Notes: generated by a model not told the origin, from the sequence alone. Shown: positions 41,346 to 64,000, counted from the first letter of the stretch. The stretch is DNA of 64,000 nucleotides from a virus (IMGVR_UViG_3300033519_000155:1-64000); one strand, 5' to 3'. A program made the numbers and translations.

Positions 41346-42806
41346 TTATAATAATATTTCTTCTGTTATAGGAACTAAATGTAAAGTAGTTAAATCCTCT
41401 GAGTATTTAAACATTCTCCCATAACCAATAAAATTTTTATAAGGAGAAGCTTTCTTTCTTGCTTTTCTTGTTTTGTAGGGTTTCCGTTTCTTTCGAGGTT
41501 TAACTATTATTTCCTCAGATATGATATGTGGAGTATAGTGTTTTTGATAAAGTTCTTCTTGTTCTGGTGTCAGGGGTAATGTTTTTTCTACACTGGGAGC
41601 TATTGTTTCAATAACTCCAGTTCTAGCATCTCCACAAGGATAAGTTTCACTCTTTTCCTTGCTTCGTGGAATTTCTTCCTTTACGGTATTACCGCAGGTT
41701 GCCGCACACAACATTCGATTTTTAAGGTTACGTGCAGAATTAACATTACGGTCTTCCTCCATACCACAATTTGAACATTTATAAACACGTTCATTTAACT
41801 TTTGTTTTTGCTCTGCTCCACAGCAGGAACAAATTTGACTTGTCTTATATTCATCAACAAAATAAACAGTTCTTCCTTCACGCTCTGCTAAAGTCTTAAA
41901 GGTGCGTAAGAACAAATCTTTTGATGGCATAACCATATTTTTATTACCTACAAATATCTGTCCTTCGGGATTATGCTGGAGAAAACTGTGGATTTTTTCT
42001 TCATATTTTCTTTTTAGGTATCTCTTTACTTTACGTTCCAGTTTATCAATTCTTATTGCTAAATCTCTTTTCTTACTGTTAGATAAGTATTTATGATTAT
42101 TTTTAGTTTTAAGAAGAGTTTTCAGGTGTTTTATTTTTTTGTTTGACCTGTCTAAATAAGGTATTATTTCAGGGGCAGTTTCCTTATATCCTTTGTCTGT
42201 TGTGATTAAGTCTATTCTGCCACAGTCAACAAATATTTTTTCTATGTTTTCAGATATTTCTATTGAATATGGGATATGAAAGTTTAAAAAGATTTCATTT
42301 GTATTTTTATTCTGGTAAACCACTAAATCTGTTATTTTACACTCAGGGACAGGGTGCTGTAAGTTAACAGTTATATTAGATTGGTTTTTTCCTGTATGCA
42401 AGCTAATAGTGTATTTGTCTATTAGGGTAAATGCTTTACGAGAGTAACGCATCGCAAAAATATATCCGGGTTCTTGCTGTTTTAACTGTTTGGCAGTTAC
42501 AGCGTTACCCCGAATATCTCTAAAAATATTACTATAGACATAGCTTGATACTAAAGATGATTGTTCAAACTTACGTATATGTTGTAAGGAATTGCTTTTT
42601 AAATGATTGAATATTTTATTATTCTGTAAATCTGATGGGTTCTTTACACTGTTACAGAAATGGTTATAAACCTCTCTACAATAGAAGGATAGTCTGATTA
42701 ACGTATTATGTAAATCTTTTGTGTAATAAGCTTTTATACTCTGAGTTTTAAAACCATCTATTTTCATTAAATAATTTTTACACCTTTTATTAAAATCTGT
42801 TGACAT
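41346..42806 (-). CDS. tnpB: Stand-alone TnpB-family RNA-guided nuclease homolog with altered RuvC site and about 120-aa C-terminal extension
   Basis: FVDCG (RuvC-I), IFVG at RuvC-II, VDEYKTSQICSCCG, YKCSNCG, DRNVNSARN; no transposase adjacent. Confidence 0.85.
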   Translation of the reverse strand: MSTDFNKRCKNYLMKIDGFKTQSIKAYYTKDLHNTLIRLSFYCREVYNHFCNSVKNPSDLQNNKIFNHLKSNSLQHIRKFEQSSLVSSYVYSNIFRDIRGNAVTAKQLKQQEPGYIFAMRYSRKAFTLIDKYTISLHTGKNQSNITVNLQHPVPECKITDLVVYQNKNTNEIFLNFHIPYSIEISENIEKIFVDCGRIDLITTDKGYKETAPEIIPYLDRSNKKIKHLKTLLKTKNNHKYLSNSKKRDLAIRIDKLERKVKRYLKRKYEEKIHSFLQHNPEGQIFVGNKNMVMPSKDLFLRTFKTLAEREGRTVYFVDEYKTSQICSCCGAEQKQKLNERVYKCSNCGMEEDRNVNSARNLKNRMLCAATCGNTVKEEIPRSKEKSETYPCGDARTGVIETIAPSVEKTLPLTPEQEELYQKHYTPHIISEEIIVKPRKKRKPYKTRKARKKASPYKNFIGYGRMFKYSEDLTTLHLVPITEEILL

Positions 42807-42828: not shown

Positions 42829-42930
42829 TGATGTATAACCTTTTTTCAATTTTTGTCGGATATTAGTTGAAAAAGGGTTGCTTGATTTTAACCCCTTATT
42901 TTCATCTAGTTTAGTGTAACGAATATTTTT

Positions 42931-43216: not shown

Positions 43217-44122
43217 TCAACATCGAGAGAGAATATCCCTTGCATATTTTACACCTACGGAATTCAATCCCTGATTATATGCTATGCTCATGACCATAGC
43301 ATGTTGTCGGTTAAATTCCGCTAGTTGAATTCTTGAAAAAATCTGTGTTCTTATCCAATCCAGATAAAAGCAACCACAGTGAATATTTATATCTATATTA
43401 AAAGGGTCTGACCCTTCCGGGAGATTTAATTTCTTCAAGCACTCTTCAAAAGTTGCAGGAAGAAGTTGCATTAATCCTTTTGCATTAGAGGAGGAAACTG
43501 CTCTAGGATTAAAGGAACTCTCTCTTCTTATTACATTAGAAATATAAGAGTTTTTCTGAGTTCCTAAAGGGTTTAAAAAATATTTTTCGGAATACAGGGA
43601 GATTGCTTTATTTATTATTTGCATTTCTGTATCTATATGAGGACTAAACACAGGGACAATAGGTTTTAGTGTATGCCTTTGATTGTAATACCATAAAGCT
43701 TTATCTCTAATTAGCTCATAAACATTCTTTTCTTGTCCTTTAAGATACTTTCTGCAATCCCATCGTTCTGAGGGATAACCGTCTAATTGAGCAAAATGAG
43801 CATGGTCGTAAACATCTTCAATAGGTATGTCGTGTTTACTCATAAGATTAGCAACTAGGGTTGCAGCAAGTTCTATTTGCTCTAATCGAGGAGGGCAATC
43901 CCCATCTGTTTTTTCAGTCATATTAAGTCCAGAGCATATAGTAACACCAATATTATCTGTATTTCTTCTCCAAGTATGAGCTAAAATATCATCGTCAGAG
44001 TCACACATCTGAACTACTTTAGCTTTACCTAATTTTTTATCAAAAGTAATTGAATAATGATAATCAGGAGAGCAATATGTATAGTTCCCGGCACTCCAAT
44101 GTAATGTTACAATTTTACCCAT
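43217..44122 (-). CDS. Two-domain endolysin: N-terminal amidase-like + C-terminal SLT lytic transglycosylase
   Basis: LHWSAG..HTWRRN..IGV..DH; RRESSFNPRAVSSSNAKGLMQL..YNQG. Confidence 0.88.
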   Translation of the reverse strand: MGKIVTLHWSAGNYTYCSPDYHYSITFDKKLGKAKVVQMCDSDDDILAHTWRRNTDNIGVTICSGLNMTEKTDGDCPPRLEQIELAATLVANLMSKHDIPIEDVYDHAHFAQLDGYPSERWDCRKYLKGQEKNVYELIRDKALWYYNQRHTLKPIVPVFSPHIDTEMQIINKAISLYSEKYFLNPLGTQKNSYISNVIRRESSFNPRAVSSSNAKGLMQLLPATFEECLKKLNLPEGSDPFNIDINIHCGCFYLDWIRTQIFSRIQLAEFNRQHAMVMSIAYNQGLNSVGVKYARDILSRC

Positions 44123-44238
44123 AATTACATTCCTTTCTTATTTTACTAATTTTAATTTAAGAAGTATTCTAAATATTCCGTAATAAAAGAAAAAAGCAAT
44201 TTGCATAATTATAAATAGAACACATCTTTTTATAAAGG

Positions 44239-44646
44239 TCATTTCTTTATTTTTCCTATAAGAACATTTATCCCATTAACTACATTGGAAACAGACTCAG
44301 GGAAATTGAATTTTGTGTGTTCGAGTTCAGGAAGATTTGCCTGTGCAACTTTTACTGCTTTTTCAAGTTTCTGTTCAGAACTCATTCCGAAAGGCATAGA
44401 AATTTCTTCGGCATATCTTATACCTTTTAAAAGTTCATTAAGAATTTTTGGTTCATGTTCATTTATTTTTGATACTGCATTTTTGAAGGGTTGATAAGGA
44501 ACTGCATCTGCCACTGTTCCTAATACTTCTCTAATAGCTTCATCTTTGCTATCTACGTAATTAAGGAAATCTTTTACTGTATCTTTTACACCTACGTATT
44601 TTTGAATTGTGTCTCTCATTTCATTAACTGTTTCTATAAAACCCAT
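44239..44646 (-). CDS. Hypothetical protein with weak LL-H holin-like motif
   Basis: GIRYAEE..SEQKLEKAV; directly upstream of endolysin; no clear TM helix. Confidence 0.4.
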   Translation of the reverse strand: MGFIETVNEMRDTIQKYVGVKDTVKDFLNYVDSKDEAIREVLGTVADAVPYQPFKNAVSKINEHEPKILNELLKGIRYAEEISMPFGMSSEQKLEKAVKVAQANLPELEHTKFNFPESVSNVVNGINVLIGKIKK

Positions 44647-44660
44647 TAATAAACACTCCT

Positions 44661-46250
44661 TTAATCTAATGTAAAATAAAATGTTGTTCCTCTGTCAGGT
44701 TCGCTGTCAAACCAAATATTTCCTCCATGTTCTAAAATTATTTTCTTTACTAAAGAGAGTCCTATACCTGTGCCGGGATACCTTTTAGAGTGAATTCTAA
44801 AGAAAGGTTTACATAGATTTTTTGCACTCTCCATATTAAAACCAATTCCGTTATCACTAATAAAGTAAATATCTTGGTCTCCTGTATTAGACTTACCGAA
44901 TTGAATTTTTAATTTTCTGTAAACATCTCTATACTTTAGACTATTACTTATAAAATTTTCAAACACCGAGCGAAATAATGTTTCATCTACTTCTGCATAT
45001 AAATCTTCTTGGATAATTATTTCAGGAAATTCCCTTGTGTCGAGTTTTAACAGGGTGTTGTAACACTGTTTAAATAATAAACTCAAATTTACTTTTTGAA
45101 TATTGAGAGAAGCTTTCCCGATTTTTAGAAGTCCTATGAGTGAGTGAAGAGTTTCTAATATATGGTGCAGTTCTAAATGAATACTGCCCATAATTTTCAT
45201 ATGTTTTTCGCAGTTTTTTTCTTCCTCATTTAGCAATAGATGAAAATACTGGTCTATTGTTTGTATGGGTGTTTGAACATCATGAGATAAAGCGGAAACA
45301 TAATTTTCCAGTTCAAGATTTTTATATGTAATTTCTTGGGTTCTTTCGGTAATAGTTTCTTCTAAATTTTCTTTTGCCTGTATAAGAGTATCTTCAAATT
45401 GTTTTTTAAGTATATAGAACCCTACTAATTCTGCACAAATTTGTAGAATATCAATAATATCCTGTGATATGTTTAGTTCTTCAACGGTATTATCAAATTC
45501 TAAAAATCCCCATAGCTTATCTTCTATTATTATAGGTAATAATACTAAAGTTCTTACTTCTAAACTTTTTAAGAAAGCAAATTCTTCCTCAGAAAGATGC
45601 TTTGCATGGGTAATAAGTGGTCGTTTTTCCTCACATAGTAATTTTAAAGTTTTAAAGGTATCACAGTCTATTTTTTGTAATTTAGGGTCTAACCCAACAA
45701 AACGAATTCCTGTTTTACAGGTTTCAATAATTTTTTGTAAGTATTTTTCTTTTTCAAAATACTGAAATATACAACAAGAGGTAAATGCTGAAACATCAAG
45801 CATATGTTTTAATCCTGCTTCTAATGCAAGAATAAGTCCACCATTTTTTAAGAGTGCCTTAGAACATTTGTATAAAGCACTCTTATAATTTAATAAAGTT
45901 TTTAGCTTTTTTTCTGATAAATTTTTAGTTGTAACGTCTTTTACAGCTACTAAAAAATAATCTTTGCGTGAATTACTTATATTAGCTACTTTAAACTCTC
46001 CGTAAAATTTTTGTCCACCTTTTTTTATTTGAACTGCTTCAAATTCTGACATTTCTTTAGTTATTTTATTTCGGAAAATAGAAAAATCATATTCTCCTAT
46101 TAAACATCTTTTGTCTAATCTATAGAGAACTTCTGCTTTTCTATTTGCATATGTAATCTGCCCTTTTTCAACAACAAATGTTGCTTCAGGATACTCCTCA
46201 AAAATTTCATAAAAATTGTCAATCTTTTTCCTAAATAGAAACCCTAGCAT
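44661..46250 (-). CDS. Cytoplasmic sensor histidine kinase (PAS-GAF-HisKA-HATPase)
   Basis: PAS (FEEYPEATFVVEKGQITYANRKAE), GAF (LVLLPIIIEDKLWGFLEF), H-box SHDVQTPI, N-box NFISNSLKY, DNGIGF, PFFRIH, GTGIGL, HGGNIW. Start placed at ATG 46250 (track start 46364 overlaps neighbour). Confidence 0.95.
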   Translation of the reverse strand: MLGFLFRKKIDNFYEIFEEYPEATFVVEKGQITYANRKAEVLYRLDKRCLIGEYDFSIFRNKITKEMSEFEAVQIKKGGQKFYGEFKVANISNSRKDYFLVAVKDVTTKNLSEKKLKTLLNYKSALYKCSKALLKNGGLILALEAGLKHMLDVSAFTSCCIFQYFEKEKYLQKIIETCKTGIRFVGLDPKLQKIDCDTFKTLKLLCEEKRPLITHAKHLSEEEFAFLKSLEVRTLVLLPIIIEDKLWGFLEFDNTVEELNISQDIIDILQICAELVGFYILKKQFEDTLIQAKENLEETITERTQEITYKNLELENYVSALSHDVQTPIQTIDQYFHLLLNEEEKNCEKHMKIMGSIHLELHHILETLHSLIGLLKIGKASLNIQKVNLSLLFKQCYNTLLKLDTREFPEIIIQEDLYAEVDETLFRSVFENFISNSLKYRDVYRKLKIQFGKSNTGDQDIYFISDNGIGFNMESAKNLCKPFFRIHSKRYPGTGIGLSLVKKIILEHGGNIWFDSEPDRGTTFYFTLD

Positions 46251-46264
46251 AGAAACACCAACTT

Positions 46265-46645
46265 CTATTTTCCACCCGGAAAGAATTTTTCCCAATTTGT
46301 TAAAATATAAATGACTATTGCTCCAAATCCACCACCAACAGCATATAATACTTTTTGATACCACGCAATATTATTGTCCTGTTGTTTATTTCCGTTCCTT
46401 ACCATCTCCTGTAATAATTCTATATTAGCGTTCTCGGCAGTTCTAACAGCAAGGTCTTGTTTTCGAGCAATTTCAGCTACAACAGCAGTTAGTGTATTTA
46501 CTGCGACTTTCATTTCAACTATATTACCAGAAAAATACTCATACGCTCGAACCATCATAGCAATATCCTGATTGCTAATATTCTTATTTGGGTCTATTTG
46601 AGTTATTGGTGTCTGCGTGTTCTGTAAATTTGTCTGAGAGTCCAA
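46265..46645 (-). CDS. Coiled-coil protein with single C-terminal TM helix (XhlA/holin-like)
   Basis: Coiled coil followed by VLYAVGGGFGAIVIYIL; probable TTG start 46645 after GAGGTG (track start 46678). Confidence 0.6.
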   Translation of the reverse strand: MDSQTNLQNTQTPITQIDPNKNISNQDIAMMVRAYEYFSGNIVEMKVAVNTLTAVVAEIARKQDLAVRTAENANIELLQEMVRNGNKQQDNNIAWYQKVLYAVGGGFGAIVIYILTNWEKFFPGGK

Positions 46646-47303
46646 AGCTGTCACCTCTTTTGTATATTGTATTTGCAAATCCTAATAGATTATCACGACT
46701 GGAATTAATTTCGTCAAGAGATAAATCACCATAAAAACATAAAGGTGAAGAATTTCTTTCTTTCTGTTCATTCGCTGCCCAAGTTCCACTCCATTCATCA
46801 GGAATATCTAATTTAGTTTTACTTAATTTTTCTTCTGTTTTTCCAAAATCGCAATAAGAAAGGGCATCAGCAAAAGTTTTTACAGGTTTTGTTACTTTTA
46901 TACCTTTAAAAACATTATCTAATGCTTTAAGGTCAAAAGGTTTATGTAAGTAATCTACAATATTTAATTTCTTCATTATAACTTCTGAAATTGGACATTC
47001 ATCACTAAAACCAGTCATTAAGCAAATTTTAACATTTGGATTTATTGCATTTAAATATTTAACAACATCTTCACCTGTCATTCCCGGCATACGATAATCT
47101 GTGAGAACTAAATCTAATTCTTTAGAGTGTTCTTCAAAATAATCAATACCCAATTCTGGAGAAAGCATTGTTATTATTTCATAATTATCTTCAAATACTT
47201 CTTTCATTACTTGGAGGAAGAAAATATCATCATCTATCATTAGTATTCTTTTTCTATTACAGTTAATTGATTTATTAATTTTATTTTTTCCTTTTATTAT
47301 CAT
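46584..47303 (-). CDS. Response-regulator receiver protein with unrecognised C-terminal tail
   Basis: ILMIDDD, LTDYRMPGMTG (phospho-Asp), LMTG, KPF; start ATG 47303 after AAGGAGG. Confidence 0.93.
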   Translation of the reverse strand: MIIKGKNKINKSINCNRKRILMIDDDIFFLQVMKEVFEDNYEIITMLSPELGIDYFEEHSKELDLVLTDYRMPGMTGEDVVKYLNAINPNVKICLMTGFSDECPISEVIMKKLNIVDYLHKPFDLKALDNVFKGIKVTKPVKTFADALSYCDFGKTEEKLSKTKLDIPDEWSGTWAANEQKERNSSPLCFYGDLSLDEINSSRDNLLGFANTIYKRGDSFGLSDKFTEHADTNNSNRPK

Positions 47304-47319
47304 TATTCTTACCTCCTTT

Positions 47320-47592
47320 TTATGTAATATCAACGTCTATGTCTAAAACGCCAAGGATAGTTGTCTGAATATTAATTTGTGTTTCAATAATGTTAACTTC
47401 AGTTCTTATATTGTTTATATAAGCAACCATGTCTAAATATTCCTGTTCAATATAACCAAAATCTGACCACTTATGTAAATTTAATTGTTTATACTCAGGA
47501 TATAGGTTTGTTATTTGTGCATAAGCTTGGTCTTTGAGAAAGGTAATTCTTATAACTTTCCACTCTTCCAGAGTGTGTTGTGTGTAATACAT
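47320..47592 (-). CDS. Tail-fibre-associated small protein
   Basis: ORF track; position after the fibre gene. Confidence 0.55.
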   Translation of the reverse strand: MYYTQHTLEEWKVIRITFLKDQAYAQITNLYPEYKQLNLHKWSDFGYIEQEYLDMVAYINNIRTEVNIIETQINIQTTILGVLDIDVDIT

Positions 47593-47766
47593 TCAGGTAA
47601 ATGTATCAGTTTCCGGGTCATAACACATACCAACCATTACAGAAGGATTTTCTGTAATGTCATAAAGTGTTAGTCCTTCTTCTAAAATAGGAGGATTTTC
47701 TTCCTCCCACTCAAAAATATTTATTACACTATTATTTTGTATTACTGCATATACTTTATGATACAT
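47593..47766 (-). CDS. Small tail-fibre-associated protein (57 aa, not in track)
   Basis: Hand translation: YAVIQNNSVINIFEW..GMCYDPETDTF. Confidence 0.6.
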   Translation of the reverse strand: MYHKVYAVIQNNSVINIFEWEEENPPILEEGLTLYDITENPSVMVGMCYDPETDTFT

Positions 47767-48410
47767 AAACCCTTTCCTCCACTACCACCATTTCCATTAG
47801 TATGAGCACAATATCCTCCACCACCACCTGCACCACTATTTGCAGAAGCGTTTCCTCCAGCAACACCAGAACTATTTCCCCCGTTACCTCCAGTGCCATT
47901 GTAACCTCCACCCCCACCACCTCCGCAATTTCCAGAATTTCCGATAGTTCCACCAGAAAATCTTTGACTACTTCCACCGGGAAATGCTTTAATTCCTCCG
48001 TTACAAGCACCATATCCCCATTGAGGAACAGCTTGTTTTCCACCTAGTCCACCATTCACAGATAAATAAGTTCCTAATGTAGAAATTCCACCATTACCCC
48101 CATTTACAACAGTTGCATTTCCTCCTGTTCCACCTGAACCTAATACTATTGAAATAGATTGACTGGGGGTTACATTTACAGGGAAATTTTCATACCAATA
48201 ACCAGAACCTCCACCTCCACCTGCTCTAGCACCTCCACCTCCACCCCCAACAAGTGTTGCGTATAACATATAAACATTTGCTGGAACAATGAAAGTTCCA
48301 GAGGAAGTAAAGGTTTGTGTAATTAAAGAGTCCATGTCAATATCAACAGGAGTTAATATTCTTTCTTCTGGAAAACCCTCTAAATTTACGACTAAAACTT
48401 TACTTCCCAT
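47742..48410 (-). CDS. Glycine-rich tail fibre protein
   Basis: TFTSSGTFIVP..GGGGGG repeats..GGSGGKGLCII. Confidence 0.75.
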   Translation of the reverse strand: MGSKVLVVNLEGFPEERILTPVDIDMDSLITQTFTSSGTFIVPANVYMLYATLVGGGGGGARAGGGGGSGYWYENFPVNVTPSQSISIVLGSGGTGGNATVVNGGNGGISTLGTYLSVNGGLGGKQAVPQWGYGACNGGIKAFPGGSSQRFSGGTIGNSGNCGGGGGGGYNGTGGNGGNSSGVAGGNASANSGAGGGGGYCAHTNGNGGSGGKGLCIIKYMQ

Positions 48411-48418
48411 ATAAAAAC

Positions 48419-49924
48419 CTATGCCCTTTTGATTGGTGTTCCGGGTTCAAATTCAAGTTCAGTTGCACTGATAGCTTTTCCAACATACTGAACAACATTT
48501 CCTGAACCTGTTGGAACTGTAGTTGTAATTTTTCCTGCGGAAGAAGGATTGAGGAAATATTTTGCCCCTACAGTAAGACCAGAAAGTTGATTGTTTATTC
48601 TTCCGAAGTAAACTAAAGCTGTATCTCCTGTGTTAAATGCTGCAAGAACATAACCTTCGGCAATTTTTCCAGAAGCAGAGGCATCAGCTAATCTTGCTTT
48701 TGCTGCTCCACCATCGTCAAATATGTTAATCATATCTCCTGCTACTACATCTTCAAATGCTGGAAGATTTTTAGCATCTGCCCCGAAACCCGGAGGCATT
48801 ACTGATGGGTCGAGTGTGCCTGTGTCGAGTAAAGCTACTAAGTCTCCAGCGTTACCCACTCCACCAGAAGTAGCTGTCCCTGCTTTTTCTTCGGGAAATC
48901 CGTCTGTTCCTAATTGCAAATATTTTTTCGCTGCCATTTGTTATTCCACCTTTCGTTATTTAAACCCTTGTAAAGGGTAATTTTATATCTATAAAAATCT
49001 TAGTCGGGGTAATTACATACCCTAAAACAAAAACTAAACCTACAGAAGGAGGAGTTTGGGTTAACATTCCATTAGTTCCTAAATATATAGGTTTGTTATA
49101 TTCCCAATTCCAAGAAGGTTCAGTAAATTCACCTTTTACTGCTATGTTTAACCTACTGCCGATATTTTGAACAGCGTGTTTTGATATACCAATAAAGTAT
49201 TTTTTATGCTCTAAATTTGAATTGTCCGCATAATAAGCAGTATTATTATTTACAATAACTGCTCTTTGTCCACCAATAATTTCTCCAGCTAAAACTTCAA
49301 TGTCAGTAGTATAGTAATTAAAGGTATATGTTCCACCTTCAACTATATCTAATTTAGTAACTTGCTTTTGAGTTTTTAGTATAACATTTTTAGTTTCTGC
49401 TTTTAATTTTGTTGGTGTTTTTCTTACAATAAGTTTTACGTTTTCACTGTCCAGAACTTTAACTTTTAAAGGTTTCTTTTCTGTTTTTAATAGTGTAGAG
49501 GAAACAACAGGTTTTACTATTGTTATATCTTTTTCAGTTTTTAAAATCATAAGTTTAATTCCTATCTTGTTACTGCTGGAACTATATTAATTGTTCCTTT
49601 TATTAGTGTTTCTTTTTCATTAGTAATAGAAACCATTTCTAAATCATACACATAAGTATTTTCAAAAGTTGCTGTTTCTAAAGCAGAAAGATTTAAAACT
49701 ATTGTTCCTAAAGCACCACCTAAAACAATGTTTCCTGATGTAGTTGAAAGTTCTTTTACAATATTTGTATCTTCTACAAATTTTCGTATTTGCATTTTTG
49801 CGGTGTAATCTGTAAGATTTATGGGTGTTTCAAGAGCATCATCATCACATAGTGTAAAAGTCATATTAAAATTTCTTGCTTGATTTATTTCTAAATTATA
49901 TTCGATTTCTTTTATTCCTAACAT
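48419..49924 (-). CDS. Three virion/tail-tip structural proteins (48419-48937, 48960-49550, 49562-49924)
   Basis: Beta-rich; GAKYFL..G.ITT and KPIYLGTNG motifs typical of fibre-associated proteins; context. Confidence 0.6.
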
Positions 49925-57065: not shown

Positions 57066-60000
57066 TTATAAAATACTCCTTCCGTAATACTTAGAAGCTA
57101 TTACAGAATTTACTAATCCTCTTGTGTTCTGTTTAATATCTCCATTCGGTTTCACTGACTTATTATCAATATACGCATTATAAGAATTACCTTGTGCAGT
57201 TGCTAAAGATTTCTTTATGTCTCCCAAAAGTCCTGCTACTCCATCTTTTAATTCTGAGAAAAATTGTTTTGTTTCTCCAGAAGGCATTGTTACAGTTTGT
57301 TTGCTCTGTAAGTTTGCCATATTGTATCCTTCTTTCTGGACAAGTATATTTTGCGTTTGCACACCACTTACCATACCAGTTCTGAAGTAATTTGTAAAGT
57401 CCTCAACTGATTTTGCTACAAGTTTTGTTCCAAATCTTTCTCCTGCTTCTTGTGCCATTCTATCATTAGAAGGATTATCAAATCCATACAAAGGTTTAAA
57501 TGTGTAAATTACTCCAGAACTTTGTTGACCTGAAGGACCAGAAATTGCACCGGGCATTTGTGGAGCTTGCCCTAATCCTGAAGAAACTGTTGCAGAATTT
57601 ACTCCTATACCACTTACTGTAACACCAATACCACTTAATCCTCCTGTTGCCTGTGTGGGTCTTCCCATATTTGCTTCATTTTGTGCTTGAATTAAAGGAT
57701 TAAGTGTTTCTACTTGTGATTGAATTGCCGCAGTTTGTTTGCTTAATATATCTGTTTGTTCTTTTAATACTTCATCATCTAATGTTCCTTGAATATTAGT
57801 ATCAACAGTTTGATTTGGTTGACTAAACCTACTCCCAGTATCATTAAGCTGCTGTAATTTACCTTTATTTTTTTCTATTTCCGCATAATTAGCTTTGACC
57901 TGTGCTGCGTTATCATTAGCAATTTTAGTTGATATTTGAACATTATCAATTTGACTCTGTAAATCTGTTACAGATTTACCCAATGATTGATAAGTTGATA
58001 AAATACTTTTTCCTGTATCAGATAAATACTGACCCTGTTTTGCGTTTTCTTGAAGAACCAAACCAATTTTTCTGTATTCTTCTAACATTGCTTTAGTAGA
58101 GGACATTCTTTTAGCAAAATATATTTCTTCAGAAATAATTTCTGCATCTACGAGCATACGTAAAAGTTCATCTTCTAAATCATATCTATCCTTTATTCTA
58201 TTTAATTTTGCTTCATCTTCTTTAGACCAGAAAGTTGCTTCTTTGTCTAATTGCTCTTGCATTTTAGCTTCTTTATCAGTAATTCTTTTTGTTTCTGCTG
58301 CGTCTTTGTCTGCTATATATTTTTCTTCCAGAGCTTTTTTCTGAATTTGATACCATTCATCTACTTGATACCTGCTTAAACCCATAGCTTCATAAGCTTT
58401 TTTCTGTTTATCTAAAGACTCTAAAGCATTTTTATAGTCTATTTCATAAGCTCTATAATTTGCTTCTGCTATAGCATATTCTAATGCTTTTGCTGCTTCT
58501 GCTTTTTCTGCATCTTTAGCTTTCTGAGCTTCAACCATCTCAGTATAACGAGCTAAACTTGATTGATAAACCTCAGAATATTTACCTTTCATAGCTTCAG
58601 CGTAATCTTTATCTATTTCTGCCCTGCGTTTAGTGAACCATTCTTCTACTTTTACTCTTTCTATTCCACCCTGAAGATATTTTTGTGCTTGTTCTTTTGC
58701 AGAATAAATTGACTGTTCTCTGGAAAGTTCTTCATTACCTTTTTCCATTCGAGTCTTTTCCCAATAGAAATCTAAAGCGGTTTCTTTTCTTGTTCCTGCA
58801 CTAATAATAGCATTTGTATTAACACTATCAAGGAAACCATAAGGTTTTTTAGGGTCTTCAAAAGTTAAGAGTAAATCGGAAGAAATATCAGCAGATTTTT
58901 CAGTGTTTATGGTTGTTAACTTTGCCTGTGCTAAGATTGCATCAAGAGTCTTTGCTGCTTCTGATAATCCTGTTTCTATGATTGTGTAAGGAGAATAAGA
59001 TTGAGTTTCCATACCAGAAGAAACATATCCACTCTCTCCAGTTTTTAAAGAAGAACCGTATTGTGCTACTGCTTCAACTGTCCCTGCTTTGAAATAATTT
59101 GCTAAATCCTGTGAACTTTTATTAATAGTTTGTAAAGCCGTATCATATCCTGCCTTTATTGCCATAGCATCATTTACAGGGTCATCAAATCCTAAAATTT
59201 GAGCATTTGACAGAGTTTTGGTCGATGCTTTTTGCCTACCACTAACTCCGGGAGGGGCATTTACTTTTATAGTGGTAGTTAAATCAACTTTAGTGGGTTC
59301 TTTTTGTGCTTCTATTAATTTCCCAAACATGTTATTTACATCAGGGTTATTCCACATGTTTTTTACTATATCTTCACGCTCGGAATATGATTTATTGGTA
59401 GAATATTGACTCCCACCTGAAATAGATGTGCTTTTATTAGATGTTCCTTTATTTTTTCCAAAAGCAGATAAGTCTAAAGTATTTAATGCTTCTGACATAT
59501 CCATGAAGTTACCAAGACCACTTACCTGCGGTGCAGTAATTGTATTTATAGTTCTGAGTGAATTTGCAAGTTCATTAGCGGATTTAACAGACCCATCAAG
59601 ACCTGTTTTCATTGAATTAATATTTCCTGCTACACCTGTGGAAGCATCAGCAACAATACCTAATTCTTCTCCCATTTTTTGAATTGCTGTGTTTATGTCA
59701 TTTGTTGAAGCAACACCATTTACCATTGTAAAACCAAATTTTTGAAGTTCTGCCACATTCTTTTTTAAACTTTGATAATATGCTTCTTGTTCACCTGATA
59801 ATTTATTTCCTGAATTTATAAAATCTTGTGCTTTTTTTAACCATTCCAGAGCAGCAGGATTTACAGACTCTTTTAAATATCTTATAGCATTATTAGTAAC
59901 TGTCTGAGCATTAATAGAAGTATCTCCCATAGCAACCCTTAATTTTTGAGAGTCTATATAATTAGCATAAGCTAAATCTGCTCGTTCACGTTCTTTTATA

Positions 60001-63000
60001 AGAATTTCTTTTAATTTATCATCAACAGCATCTAAAGCTTGCTCTTCACTGGTATAACTTTTAATTAAGCTTTTAGCGTAACCATCAAGTTCTTGTCCTG
60101 CTTCAAGTTGAGCAATTAAGGGTTCAACCATATCTTTTTGTAGGTCTAAGGAAGCTTCTAAAATATCACGCTGTTTTAAAAGTAATTCAGTTTCTTGTTC
60201 TATAGTATAAGTTTTTGTAACATCTTGTTTTTTTGCTTCTTCAGTAGCTAAAAGAGCTAATTTTAAATCTTGCTCTTCTTTTACTAATCGTATTCTTTCA
60301 TCTAATTCTTTTCTTGCAAAATCACGTTCTAAAAGAAATCTTCTGCTTGCATAGTCCGAAGCAAGTTTAGTTTTATCAGTTTCATATTTAGCATATTCTT
60401 TAAATTCTTCCTGAAGAGCAAATATAGCTTTTTTCTTTTCAATATCTATAGACTGGAAGTTATTAGTTCCACCGGAAGCAATTTTACTTGCCATTTCTAA
60501 TCTTATCTTATAAGTATCAATAGCAAGTTTTTTCATTCCATCTGCTATAGATTTTTCTATTGCTAATCTTCTTTCAGCATCATCTTTAAATTCTCCTGCG
60601 TATTTATGCATGTAACCTTCGATAGCTTTATAGTAGTCTGCTTGTGTTATTTTACCATCTGCAAGTTTTTCAGTTTGGAATTTTGTAAAATCTTGGAAAG
60701 AAGTTTGGGAAAGCTGATTTAATTTTGTTTCTGCTTTTGCTAAATCTTCAGGAACTTTTTCTAATTCTTTTCTATGAGTATCAATATAGGTTTTTTGGGC
60801 ATCATAGAATTGTCTTGAATTAATTATTCCTTGTTTATATGCCCCCTCATGAGTTTTTGTAAAAAAGTTTAGACCATCAGAGATAGATTGAATATACTCT
60901 TTATTTGCTTTTTCAGATAAAGCTGTGGAAGTATTTGTAGCATCTCCACCTTTAATAGCTAAATCTAAAGTTTTAGCAAAAAGTCTATTTTTTTCTTCTC
61001 TAGTTTTATTACTTTCATTATCAAGCACTTTTTGTTCATGCAGGAGTGCTATATGTTTAGGAGTATCTTTTAGTCCAGCTTTTTCTAATTTTTCTAAATC
61101 TGTTTTTATAATTTTTGCTTTGGCATCTTGGGCAATAATAGTTTGGTCAACAAATAGTAATTTATTTTTAGACTCTTTATATTCTATAGTAATATTATTT
61201 AGATTTTCAAATGTCTTTGCATGATGTTCTGCCTGTTTTGTGTAATTTTCATAATCTGCCTGAGTAACAAGAGCAGTTTTTTGACCTTTAAAATCACTTA
61301 ATACTTTAGCTAAAGCAACATCTAATTTTTTCTTTTCTTTTTCAAAAAGTTTATCAAATTCTACTTCAACACCTGCATCCATCTTATAATTTCTAGAAAA
61401 AGTCGCTGCTTTAGAAGTATCTTTTGTATCAGATTGGTAAGTTTTCATATTTCGGAGCATTGCAAGTCTGTTAAAAGCTATGCCTGTTTCATTTGCACCT
61501 TGATTTTTTGAGTATATGTCAGCTTCTTTTAAAGCATCTTTAACAAAAGTTTGCATTTTTCCTGCATTATCTAGGGTTTTTACTTGTGGTGTTATACCTT
61601 TCCCTACTACAGAAGATTTACCTTTGTCTAGCATATCAAATGCTTTAGTTTTCCAGTCTTGAAATATGTTTGTAGTTACAGTTATGTCTTTTAAAATACC
61701 TTCAATTTGAGAAAGTAATTTTTTTCTACCTGTGTTAGAGTCGAATTGTTCTGAAGGAGCTTTTTTTATTTGCGTGTGTGCTTTTTCTAAAAGTTCAACC
61801 CCTATTTTATATTTTTCATTTAATTCTGTCCACGTTTCTAAATCTTTTTTACTTAATTCTACACCATCAGTTTTTAATTTATTTAATCTTGTATAATTAG
61901 CAAATTGTTCTTTATTTTCACCTAAGTCAGTTAAAATATTTTTTGTGCCCTCAAGTAAAGTTGTGCGTTTAAAAGGGTCTTTTTTGTCAGGAGAAAAATA
62001 AATAGGTGTATTATTAAATTTCATACCACTTTTTTTCATTAGGGGGTTTTCATCTGACGTGAACGGAGTAATATCTAAAGGTGTTTGTGCATACTCTTCT
62101 CGTTCAAATTCTTTTAAATATGTGGGGTTTAATCCAGAAAAATCAGGTTTTTTAGTTAATTTAAAACCTTGATTATCCATTTTTTCTTTAAAATAATTAC
62201 GTTGTGCTGCTTTATCTAAATCTACAAAAGCACCATATATAGCTTCACCAGTATCATAAAGAATTTTATTAAACACTGAAGATTTTTCAAAAGTATTTTT
62301 TATATTAGACAAAGCTGTAGGTCTTGAATTTGTTCCTAAAGTATCAATAACATTTTTAGTATTAGCAACATTATCAGATAGGGATTGAGGTATTGTTGAC
62401 CCCTCAGTTTTTATTTGTAAAGGGGTTTTATTTACTTCTAAAATAGAGTCTTTAAGGTCTCTTACACTTTTATCTAAATTTTTAACTTCATCAGTTACGT
62501 GTAGTTTTTTTGCCCCTAAATAAATTAATGCCTGTGTAGCTTCTTCTGTTTTAATTTTTGTTTCCAAAGCAGCTAAAGAAATACCTCCTAATACTGTTGC
62601 TATGGCAGCAGCACCTAATGTAAAAGGTAAAACTCTTGAAATTGTTGTATATAAACTAATTAATGTAGATTGAACACCTATTAATTTCATGCCTGATGAT
62701 GCTGCTAATGCTTGGGCATGAGCAATTGCAGTATAAGCTTGTATTAATGTTCCACCTGCGGCAGCAGCAGCAAATAATTTTTGCCCTATCTGTGACATGG
62801 CATAACCAGAATATAAAATTCCACCTGCAAGATTTTTATATGCTAAAGGTGCTTTATTTAATTCCATTACTAAATCAGTTAATGATAAAGTTATACTTCT
62901 AAATTGGGGTAATACTACCTGTGCCATCGAGTCTGCTAAAGCTTCTTGGGCATCTTGTAAATTTGATACTGCTATTTTATAGGTATTAGACATTCTCTGC

Positions 63001-64000
63001 ATAGCACCTTTAGAACTATCTTCAATGTATGCCATTAAAGCAGTATTCATTGCTTGCATGTCAGTAATTTGTCCACGAGCGTTTATAACAGTTTCACCAG
63101 TCATTTCTTTAGCTTTTGCAGCAATCATTTGTTTTGTTATACCAAAACCATTTTTCAAACGAACATACATACCATTCATGGCATCTGCTACTGCTTGTGT
63201 TGCTCTTGGGAGGGGTTGAGAGAACGCAGTTGCTAAATCACCAACAACAGTAACCATATCTTTTGTATCTTTTTTAAATGACCCAGCAAACATTTTTAAT
63301 CTTGCATAAGAACCCATAATTTCTGTAACTTGGAAAGGAGTTCTGATTGCTTCTGCTTTTATCCAAGCAATAGTTTCTTCAGTTTTTTGCACATCTCCAC
63401 CATAAGATGTGAGTAATCTTGTTCTTAAAGATTGGAATAAATTACCAACTCTAACAACCTCATTTGTTACTCTTGCAAAACCGTTTGCAACACCATCCAT
63501 TACAACACGAGCTTGTTGCAAAGCGTGAACATTAGCTTGTTCTGCTATTCCTTTTAATTCTTCTTTACTTTTTGCTAACGCTTTATTTTGGTTTTCAACT
63601 GCCTTTGTAGCTTTATCTTCAGCTTTAGCAAATTCATTAGCGGATTTTGTTCTTTCAGAAGCAGTTTGTTTTGCTGTTTTCATTTGGTTATTTAATATTT
63701 GTGTTTGTGCATTTAATTGTGTAATTTTTAACTGTTCATCTTTTAAAATTTGTTTTGAGTCCAATAATTCTTTGTTTACGAGAGCTAATTTTGCTGCTGT
63801 TAATTTTACTGACCCGTCTAGATGATTTTGTATTTGTTTTTCTAATGTTCTTATATTTGTTTTTTCTAGAGAAATATTATGATTTACTCCAGCAATGGTT
63901 CTTTCTTGTGTTAATTTTAATTCTTCAATTCTAGCAACTTCTTTTGCTGCTCGACCTAATTTATTTTGTGCTAATACATTATTTATATTCGCAGTTCTTT
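57066..64000 (-). CDS. Tape measure protein (more than 2300 aa; 5' end beyond window)
   Basis: Frame stays open from 63764 to the window edge; tape-measure domain (AIRTPFQVTEIM..GDLATAF..QAVADA..RLKNGFGI); long Ala/Lys/Glu helical repeats. Confidence 0.92.
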   Translation of the reverse strand, partial: RTANINNVLAQNKLGRAAKEVARIEELKLTQERTIAGVNHNISLEKTNIRTLEKQIQNHLDGSVKLTAAKLALVNKELLDSKQILKDEQLKITQLNAQTQILNNQMKTAKQTASERTKSANEFAKAEDKATKAVENQNKALAKSKEELKGIAEQANVHALQQARVVMDGVANGFARVTNEVVRVGNLFQSLRTRLLTSYGGDVQKTEETIAWIKAEAIRTPFQVTEIMGSYARLKMFAGSFKKDTKDMVTVVGDLATAFSQPLPRATQAVADAMNGMYVRLKNGFGITKQMIAAKAKEMTGETVINARGQITDMQAMNTALMAYIEDSSKGAMQRMSNTYKIAVSNLQDAQEALADSMAQVVLPQFRSITLSLTDLVMELNKAPLAYKNLAGGILYSGYAMSQIGQKLFAAAAAGGTLIQAYTAIAHAQALAASSGMKLIGVQSTLISLYTTISRVLPFTLGAAAIATVLGGISLAALETKIKTEEATQALIYLGAKKLHVTDEVKNLDKSVRDLKDSILEVNKTPLQIKTEGSTIPQSLSDNVANTKNVIDTLGTNSRPTALSNIKNTFEKSSVFNKILYDTGEAIYGAFVDLDKAAQRNYFKEKMDNQGFKLTKKPDFSGLNPTYLKEFEREEYAQTPLDITPFTSDENPLMKKSGMKFNNTPIYFSPDKKDPFKRTTLLEGTKNILTDLGENKEQFANYTRLNKLKTDGVELSKKDLETWTELNEKYKIGVELLEKAHTQIKKAPSEQFDSNTGRKKLLSQIEGILKDITVTTNIFQDWKTKAFDMLDKGKSSVVGKGITPQVKTLDNAGKMQTFVKDALKEADIYSKNQGANETGIAFNRLAMLRNMKTYQSDTKDTSKAATFSRNYKMDAGVEVEFDKLFEKEKKKLDVALAKVLSDFKGQKTALVTQADYENYTKQAEHHAKTFENLNNITIEYKESKNKLLFVDQTIIAQDAKAKIIKTDLEKLEKAGLKDTPKHIALLHEQKVLDNESNKTREEKNRLFAKTLDLAIKGGDATNTSTALSEKANKEYIQSISDGLNFFTKTHEGAYKQGIINSRQFYDAQKTYIDTHRKELEKVPEDLAKAETKLNQLSQTSFQDFTKFQTEKLADGKITQADYYKAIEGYMHKYAGEFKDDAERRLAIEKSIADGMKKLAIDTYKIRLEMASKIASGGTNNFQSIDIEKKKAIFALQEEFKEYAKYETDKTKLASDYASRRFLLERDFARKELDERIRLVKEEQDLKLALLATEEAKKQDVTKTYTIEQETELLLKQRDILEASLDLQKDMVEPLIAQLEAGQELDGYAKSLIKSYTSEEQALDAVDDKLKEILIKERERADLAYANYIDSQKLRVAMGDTSINAQTVTNNAIRYLKESVNPAALEWLKKAQDFINSGNKLSGEQEAYYQSLKKNVAELQKFGFTMVNGVASTNDINTAIQKMGEELGIVADASTGVAGNINSMKTGLDGSVKSANELANSLRTINTITAPQVSGLGNFMDMSEALNTLDLSAFGKNKGTSNKSTSISGGSQYSTNKSYSEREDIVKNMWNNPDVNNMFGKLIEAQKEPTKVDLTTTIKVNAPPGVSGRQKASTKTLSNAQILGFDDPVNDAMAIKAGYDTALQTINKSSQDLANYFKAGTVEAVAQYGSSLKTGESGYVSSGMETQSYSPYTIIETGLSEAAKTLDAILAQAKLTTINTEKSADISSDLLLTFEDPKKPYGFLDSVNTNAIISAGTRKETALDFYWEKTRMEKGNEELSREQSIYSAKEQAQKYLQGGIERVKVEEWFTKRRAEIDKDYAEAMKGKYSEVYQSSLARYTEMVEAQKAKDAEKAEAAKALEYAIAEANYRAYEIDYKNALESLDKQKKAYEAMGLSRYQVDEWYQIQKKALEEKYIADKDAAETKRITDKEAKMQEQLDKEATFWSKEDEAKLNRIKDRYDLEDELLRMLVDAEIISEEIYFAKRMSSTKAMLEEYRKIGLVLQENAKQGQYLSDTGKSILSTYQSLGKSVTDLQSQIDNVQISTKIANDNAAQVKANYAEIEKNKGKLQQLNDTGSRFSQPNQTVDTNIQGTLDDEVLKEQTDILSKQTAAIQSQVETLNPLIQAQNEANMGRPTQATGGLSGIGVTVSGIGVNSATVSSGLGQAPQMPGAISGPSGQQSSGVIYTFKPLYGFDNPSNDRMAQEAGERFGTKLVAKSVEDFTNYFRTGMVSGVQTQNILVQKEGYNMANLQSKQTVTMPSGETKQFFSELKDGVAGLLGDIKKSLATAQGNSYNAYIDNKSVKPNGDIKQNTRGLVNSVIASKYYGRSIL

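Follow-up and report, generated by a model that had tools for sequence, protein, structure and literature searches.

What a complete two-component signalling pair might do among the lysis genes of a phage is the question raised by positions 43217-47303 of the virus sequence IMGVR_UViG_3300033519_000155. The window analysed here covers the first 64,000 nucleotides of an 86.9-kb IMG/VR virus record, for which the CheckV completeness is ~54%. Six co-oriented minus-strand genes follow a tail-fibre gene and two small open reading frames (ORFs), p57 and p90, in the order REC (a response-regulator protein), p97, HK (a histidine kinase), p135, p34 and endolysin. Based on our analysis, it is very likely that HK and REC are a functional phage two-component pair belonging to the lysis module. 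As read from its sequence and gene order, the pair belongs integrally to, and is inherited with, the six-gene module REC-p97-HK-p135-p34-endolysin at the 3' end of the tail-fibre operon in a large uncultivated phage.

The HATPase_c boxes and a DHp domain with a phospho-accepting His place HK among class I (HisKA-type) kinases. Residues 304-528 (DHp and CA, ~225 residues) align to solved HisKA kinases, the best PDB match being 8F71 (E 6e-27), with HK853 at E 1.7e-19. In Pfam, HATPase_c (PF02518) scored 73.9 bits against a cut-off of 26.4 and GAF 23.3 bits against 22.4, while PAS_9 fell below its cut-off, as did HisKA with 16.4 bits (cut-off 26.9). The H323, N432/N436, D466xG468xG470, F480/F483 and G493xG495xG497 boxes are all present, in columns that are invariant or near-invariant across an alignment of 21 kinases; H323, N436, D466, G468, G470, F483, G493, G495 and G497 are invariant in HK and its 20 homologues. 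The H-box, S-H323-D-V-Q-T-P, aligns to SHDIKEP of 8F71 and is invariant in the same alignment. HK has no transmembrane (TM) segment, its sole hydrophobic window falling within the GAF domain.

The receiver is likewise intact. D24/D25, D69, T97 and K121 of REC align to D10/D11, D54, T82 and K104 of Spo0F, Response_reg (PF00072) scored 62.8 bits against a cut-off of 30.2, and an AGGAGG Shine-Dalgarno site lies 8 nt before the ATG at 47303. Past the receiver domain, the C-terminal region has no known output domain or family match in Pfam, NCBIfam or PHROG and no usable Atlas neighbour, and an exhaustive HMMER search with the C-terminus over 1.84 billion representatives returned only itself and two repeat proteins (E ~1e-6). 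The latter, a junk repeat and a TPR_12 STAND protein, give at most a hint of one TPR-like hairpin and were not relied on. The isoelectric point (pI) of the C-terminal region is 5.4; an acidic tail with no DNA-binding match fits a non-DNA-binding output, without proving it. The initial annotation had described the kinase H, N, G1, F and G2 boxes and the receiver DD/D/T/K residues as intact, the kinase as free of TM segments and the receiver as lacking a recognisable DNA-binding domain, and each of these descriptions is borne out by the kinase alignment, the alignment to Spo0F, the hydrophobicity of HK and the searches with the REC tail.

The match to Spo0F bears on a different explanation, in which the phage kinase phosphorylates host regulators or the receiver drains phosphate from kinases or phosphorelays of the host, for example that of sporulation in Firmicutes, and so redirects host physiology in the course of infection. 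In the PDB the REC receiver matches Spo0F, among others, at E 1e-10, Spo0A-type proteins make up four of nine weak matches in the cluster search, and the architecture of a soluble PAS-kinase resembles that of orphan sporulation kinases. However, Spo0F is over-represented in the PDB. Among the best 25 NCBIfam families listed per protein there is no sporulation-kinase, Spo0F or Spo0A model; the HK core is nearest generic PhoR/WalK/LvrA models, none above cut-off, and REC is nearest NosR/PorX/NtrC-type models. The cross-talk with sporulation suggested initially lacks specific support. In addition, HK and REC form a dedicated 1:1 pair whose genes enclose that of a private membrane protein, which speaks for an insulated circuit, and interference with host signalling appears improbable.

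The two-component pair was inherited together with the rest of the module. A search of 5.8 billion protein clusters yielded one close relative each of HK and p135 (86% identity in both cases) and of REC (78% identity by BLASTP, or 81% when only aligned columns are counted). The three are encoded on L004, an independent 4.7-kb Logan contig from another sample and run, SRR30464860, which provides a second genome with the module. The order in L004 is tail fibre, a fused p57/p90 homologue, REC, p97, HK (a 531-aa orthologue), p135, p34 and the start of the lysin. From REC to the lysin the two genomes share ~82% nucleotide identity overall, with 74-92% from the REC ribosome-binding site to the end of the contig, and identity drops to 41-68% in the upstream tail-fibre region; the block therefore behaves as a single unit of inheritance. 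Ratios of non-synonymous to synonymous substitution rates (dN/dS) relative to L004 are 0.20 for REC, 0.05 for p97, 0.095 for HK, 0.16 for p135 and 0.08 for the lysin, as under purifying selection. The GC content at third codon positions (GC3) of HK and REC, 0.16-0.19, matches that of a 2232-aa ORF and the polymerase of the phage. HK and REC are each single in the 87-kb contig, and as adjacent 1:1 genes, co-inherited and in the same order in L004, they have the marks of a cognate pair. The next-best HK homologues are cellular, with at most 36% identity over the catalytic half only, and single-protein scans of IMG/VR with HK, REC, the lysin and p135 found no close relatives.

These comparisons also bear on whether the pair could be an artefact or a decaying passenger: a product of chimeric assembly, or a host operon of recent capture that has no function in the phage. 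The contig is a metagenomic assembly, and 410 bp separate the lysin from a downstream TnpB gene, either of which could favour such an origin. However, in L004, which comes from another run, every gene is flanked by the same junctions at both ends, and an assembly chimera was rejected on that ground. A recent host insertion was rejected given the dN/dS range of 0.05-0.20, the phage-like GC3 and the lack of a close cellular homologue among the 5.8 billion clusters; all motifs are intact as well. Chimera and recent host capture are thus effectively excluded, because of the synteny with L004, the dN/dS and GC3 values and the distance of the cellular homologues, and an artefactual or decaying pair is highly improbable. 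In the checks of synteny and contig integrity, the pair proved to be no chimera and no recent insert from a host, and it is present in the sole known relative.

Table 1. Coordinates of the lysis module and of the features around it in the window.
Feature	Coordinates	Strand	Description and basis
REC	46584-47303	-	Response-regulator protein, 239 aa; receiver at ~residues 18-135, then a ~104-aa orphan, mildly acidic C-terminal region
p97	46265-46558	-	97-aa tail-anchored membrane protein; helical N-terminus, one Gly-rich TM at ~residues 69-89, 8-aa tail
HK	44661-46250	-	Soluble sensor histidine kinase, 529 aa; PAS, GAF, DHp (HisKA type, H323), CA (HATPase_c); Pfam, phrog_10912, phrog_857, alignments
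p135	44239-44646	-	Soluble all-helical orphan protein, 135 aa; no TM
p34	44138-44242	-	34-aa one-TM micro-ORF; hydrophobic N-terminal half, basic tail, pI 10.3; ATG overlaps p135 stop (ATGA)
Endolysin	43217-44122	-	301 aa; N-terminal Amidase_2 and C-terminal SLT lytic transglycosylase; no signal peptide
Terminator-like hairpin	42870-42895	-	GGGTT/AACCC and T-run; sequence read directly
p90	47320-47592	-	Small ORF between p57 and REC; ATG directly after p57 stop
p57	47593-47766	-	Small ORF between tail fibre and REC; matches phrog_14370
Tail-fibre protein	47742-48410	-	222 aa; Pfam Gly_rich_2 E 2.6e-14; phrog_863 tail fibre assembly E 9e-25
TnpB	41346-42806	-	Cas12f1-like TNB
2232-aa ORF	57066-63764		Labelled TMP in the script used for GC3

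The module is compact, with successive intergenic distances of 16, 25, 14, 14, -4 and 15 nt when the best-supported starts are used, and with strong Shine-Dalgarno sites before REC, p135 and the lysin. Along the minus strand from 48410 to 43217 there is no intergenic terminator-like site, the sole one being a weak 5-bp stem (45721-45709) inside the HK gene. Promoter-like sites occur at chance level in this AT-rich DNA (48 observed, 38.8 expected), and therefore no internal promoter is claimed. The hairpin listed in Table 1, which lies ~320 nt past the lysin stop and ~60 nt before the TnpB gene and which the terminator scan flagged on the plus strand, is the probable end of the late/lysis transcript.

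At the distal end of the module, the assignment of the endolysin is supported by Pfam (SLT, E 1e-17, 64 bits with a cut-off of 21.3; Amidase_2, E 1.5e-7, 32.2 bits with a cut-off of 26) and by matches to the endolysin families phrog_5867 and phrog_669. Just before it, p34 is very probably a real gene, because its ORF survives three indels relative to L004 and, in the last 18 codons, the two genomes have 8 synonymous and 0 non-synonymous codon differences. It is a candidate for an unusually small lysis membrane peptide. The sole relative found for p135 is the L004 orthologue (86%), and its match to phrog_15380 is weak (E 6e-4). Having no TM segment, no hydrophobic window of at least 1.6 and a predicted helical soluble structure, p135 was rejected as a holin.

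The other small protein, p97, has no match in Pfam, PHROG or NCBIfam, and the XhlA profile (PF10779) misses it even at E<=10. Its nearest Atlas clusters consist of viral hypothetical proteins of 90-96 aa, and an XhlA-annotated Atlas cluster reaches a feature score of 0.89, below the lead threshold. The architecture of p97 and its position before an amidase resemble those of XhlA, and no XhlB-like holin is present. Membership of p97 in the XhlA family was rejected for want of a profile match, and "XhlA-like" may be used for it only as an architectural analogy to XhlA of PBSX. The p97 frame is open for 41 codons upstream of the ATG (46559-46678; 49 codons in L004) and runs into the 3' end of REC, which is read in a different frame; an 8-codon indel relative to L004 in this overlap is in frame for both. 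A longer p97 starting from TTG at 46678, or dual coding with the 3' end of REC, may thus exist; the gene caller on the L004 contig independently chose the same short forms of p97 (97 aa) and HK. As no multi-TM holin was found anywhere in the 87-kb contig, p97 and p34 are the only membrane candidates beside the signal-less lysin.

The initial annotation of the module was accurate in gene order and orientation, tail fibre, two small ORFs, REC, p97, HK, p135 and endolysin all being on the minus strand, and less so in its details. It gave gaps of 0-120 bp; the packing is indeed tight, but the 117-bp gap before the lysin holds the conserved p34 ORF, which had been overlooked. It named p97 XhlA/holin-like, and for the XhlA label a helical N-terminus and one C-terminal TM speak without any profile support, and it called the gene between kinase and endolysin holin-like, which does not hold for p135, a protein with no TM and a predicted all-helical soluble structure.

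How might such a module work? Under the mechanism proposed here, the module would be transcribed late, together with the tail genes. HK would read a cytoplasmic cue through its PAS and GAF domains and autophosphorylate on H323, from which the phosphate would pass to D69 of REC. The H-D-x-x-T motif of HisKA kinases also supports phosphatase activity, and its presence in HK suggests that the kinase may dephosphorylate REC too. The phosphorylation state of REC would then alter the contacts of its non-DNA-binding tail with p97, p34 or p135, and the altered contacts would advance or delay the permeabilisation of the membrane and the release of the signal-less endolysin. Equally, p97 could act ahead of the relay and serve the soluble kinase as its membrane anchor or as a co-sensor. 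In favour of the mechanism are the intact catalytic and phospho-acceptor residues, the single HK and REC of the contig, the gaps of -4 to 25 nt with their Shine-Dalgarno sites and no intergenic terminator-like site, the place of p97 between REC and HK, the collinearity of the block with L004, the low dN/dS, the phage-like GC3, p97 and p34 as sole membrane candidates beside the lysin, and the acidic REC tail. Of the lysis-timing hypothesis raised at first, the intact pair inside a lysis module stands, but for the timing itself it is gene position alone that suggests a link to lysis. Taken together, we rate the full lysis-timing mechanism at slightly short of an even chance. A more specific version, a His-Asp lysis clock in which the kinase reads the energy, redox or nucleotide state of the host and the phosphorylated receiver, with its tail as a new protein-binding element, directly gates a non-canonical holin system of the two single-TM proteins p97 and p34, is rather doubtful.

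Several further observations weigh against lysis timing. The candidacy of p97 and p34 as holin proteins derives from their TM segments, their position and the basic tail of p34, from which their function is only deduced, and with ~54% of the genome at hand a canonical holin could lie elsewhere. Structure models of the proteins concerned are poor: the REC C-terminal region is predicted to be helical at very low confidence (AlphaFold2 model of REC with a predicted local distance difference test score, pLDDT, of 45), and the all-helical AlphaFold2 model of p135 has a pLDDT of 51, both too poor for a fold search. Small TM genes are not enriched beside phage HK-REC clusters (6/88 compared with 71/824 in 70 loci; Fisher p 0.69), and other phage HK-REC pairs adjoin replication, portal (L008) or tail genes with no general tie to lysis. 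Finally, the module is known from only two genomes.

Those other pairs merit attention in their own right. In a profile-guided scan of IMG/VR, 92 kinase relatives were found in 79 loci. In 49 of these a separate receiver gene lies no more than 1.5 kb away, 13 have hybrid kinases only and 17 have neither. Phage two-component pairs are rare but recurrent. The scan revealed a repeated cassette of a receiver (~300 aa), a short HisKA kinase (~350-390 aa) and a second receiver (~150 aa) on viral contigs of 100-550 kb; contigs with it include L013, L015, L017, L018, L024, L033, L035, L041, L048 and L053, which range from 65 to 452 kb. This REC-HK-REC arrangement appears to represent a phage two-component module of its own, and a widespread one. 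Microcoleus phage My-WqHQDG (OR578706.1, 88856-90906) is a genuine case in GenBank: a 545-aa kinase annotated as a hypothetical protein is directly followed by an annotated receiver and adjoins a primase and a PIF1-like helicase. Kinase matches in GenBank phages are mostly to records, many of them unannotated, resembling host chromosome fragments, some of 160-390 kb (such as Listeria phage LM 4-14-1 and Staphylococcus phage SA 1306 Kay), which inflate counts.

In none of the IMG/VR kinase loci examined did the kinase lie inside a lysis cassette of the present layout. The other loci contain no relatives of p97, p135 or the lysin, and 0/70 other viral HK loci have a non-signalling gene inside the HK/REC cluster, where p97 lies between REC and HK here. 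Among 279 neighbouring ORFs, the only peptidoglycan hydrolases in Pfam (among the top 25 families per batch, a limit below which rare lysin families may lie) were the GH19 and M23 domains of L044 and L046. On these two ~189-kb contigs (L044:2515-8032 and L046:2622-8062; GC 40-44%), a kinase gene precedes two receiver genes, of which the latter encodes a hydrophobic segment at the C-terminus, and the cluster is divergent from a gene for a 504-aa GH19 and M23 lysin-like protein adjoining tail-fibre genes. No publication was found that places a kinase-receiver pair in the lysis cassette of a phage. Accordingly, the statement that intact pairs are very unusual in phage late operons needs to be narrowed: pairs recur, in 49/79 IMG/VR loci and in My-WqHQDG, but none of them is in a lysis cassette of this layout.

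The varied contexts of phage pairs raise the possibility that HK and REC are regulatory cargo, carried where the late operon ends, as accessory genes commonly are. The REC tail would then bind a target unrelated to lysis, such as RNA polymerase, DNA or RNA, and so tune late expression or host metabolism rather than the holin step. The pair of My-WqHQDG beside primase and helicase, that of L008 beside the portal gene and the many REC-HK-REC cassettes are in non-lysis contexts, consistent with such a role, and a tail without an identifiable fold could bind nucleic acid or polymerase. However, the pair is interleaved with p97, p135, p34 and the lysin rather than appended to them, the whole block was inherited as a unit with uniform divergence, and the REC tail is acidic with no helix-turn-helix or other DNA-binding match. 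Cargo is thus an unlikely explanation, and we favour a two-component pair that belongs to the lysis module.

The surroundings of the module are those of a phage distant from any cultured phage; GenBank phages have no DNA match to the window and no match to p97. Nearly all genes of the window are on the minus strand. After the 2232-aa ORF, large ORFs without a family match run toward the tail-fibre genes (47742-49924) and are presumably tail and baseplate genes. The 222-aa tail-fibre protein, the last recognisable structural gene product upstream of the lysis module, shares 60% amino acid identity with the partial first ORF of L004. Next to it, p57 and p90 correspond to one fused 154-aa ORF in L004 (461-925; 37% to p57 and 34% to p90 by blastp), and their separation is either natural or the mark of a gene that has been broken. 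Past the module lie the TnpB gene, a small plus-strand cluster, one tRNA-Gln (the only hit of an Rfam scan) and then a replication module with a DnaB-like helicase, a primase, a DNA polymerase and a UvsX-like recombinase. In a search for the host, no close relative of TnpB was found in GTDB species genomes and the DNA polymerase matches in phages were uninformative. The 87-kb contig has no integrase or resolvase, with about half of the genome missing.

Lysis timing sets burst size and phage fitness, and the established controls are holin-intrinsic clocks and antiholins such as RI of T4. If the proposed mechanism is true, phages can condition lysis on a sensed intracellular signal, through a virus-encoded, signal-gated holin switch without a described counterpart, and a compact sensor-to-lysis module would be available to synthetic biology. 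The value of the present case is that it offers a clean, minimal six-gene module together with a second genome for comparison.

Parts of the module have counterparts in known systems. The class I pair HK853-RR468 (PDB 2C2A/3DGE) shares the DHp and CA core, the H/N/G1/F/G2 boxes and the receiver DD/D/T/K residues, whereas here the pair is phage-encoded, the kinase is soluble with PAS and GAF sensor domains, the receiver and kinase genes are separated by one for a membrane protein, and the receiver carries an orphan tail of ~100 aa. The REC-HK-REC cassettes and the My-WqHQDG pair are alike in having a phage HisKA kinase adjoining stand-alone receiver genes; however, HK is at most 34% identical to the kinases of these pairs over the catalytic core, apart from two short partial matches, and the cassettes have a ~360-aa kinase flanked by receivers of ~300 and ~150 aa. 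The Clostridioides difficile phage phiCDHM1 encodes a membrane AgrC kinase along with AgrB/AgrD, with no response regulator among its agr homologues, for which horizontal transfer from the host has been proposed (PMC3901668). It likewise has a histidine kinase in a phage genome, but the kinase described here is soluble, has its own receiver and no close host homologue, and lies inside a lysis module. Among the xhlA-xhlB-xlyA lysis genes of PBSX in Bacillus subtilis, xhlA comes after tail-fibre genes and precedes an amidase endolysin; its product, a small membrane protein, acts together with a holin (PMC5589764). In size and in its one C-terminal TM p97 is like XhlA, but it misses the XhlA profile, there is no XhlB-like holin, and the kinase, p135 and p34 fill the space before the lysin.

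For the proposed output, the nearest cellular parallels are regulators of lysis genes. The LytSR two-component system controls the holin-like cid/lrg genes. In Yersinia entomophaga, the PhoB-like RoeA controls a lysis cassette (PMC10101115). Both resemble the present module in that a response regulator controls holin/endolysin-type lysis, whereas they operate in cells and at the level of transcription, through LytTR or winged-helix outputs, and the module is viral, with a receiver that has no DNA-binding domain. In the lysis inhibition of T4, the antiholin RI controls the holin T, and the signal is superinfection, sensed in the periplasm (PMC11413866). T4 uses no phosphotransfer and has no sequence relationship to the module, but in both a phage regulator would control holin triggering at the protein level upon a signal, making T4 a functional analogy for the proposed output.

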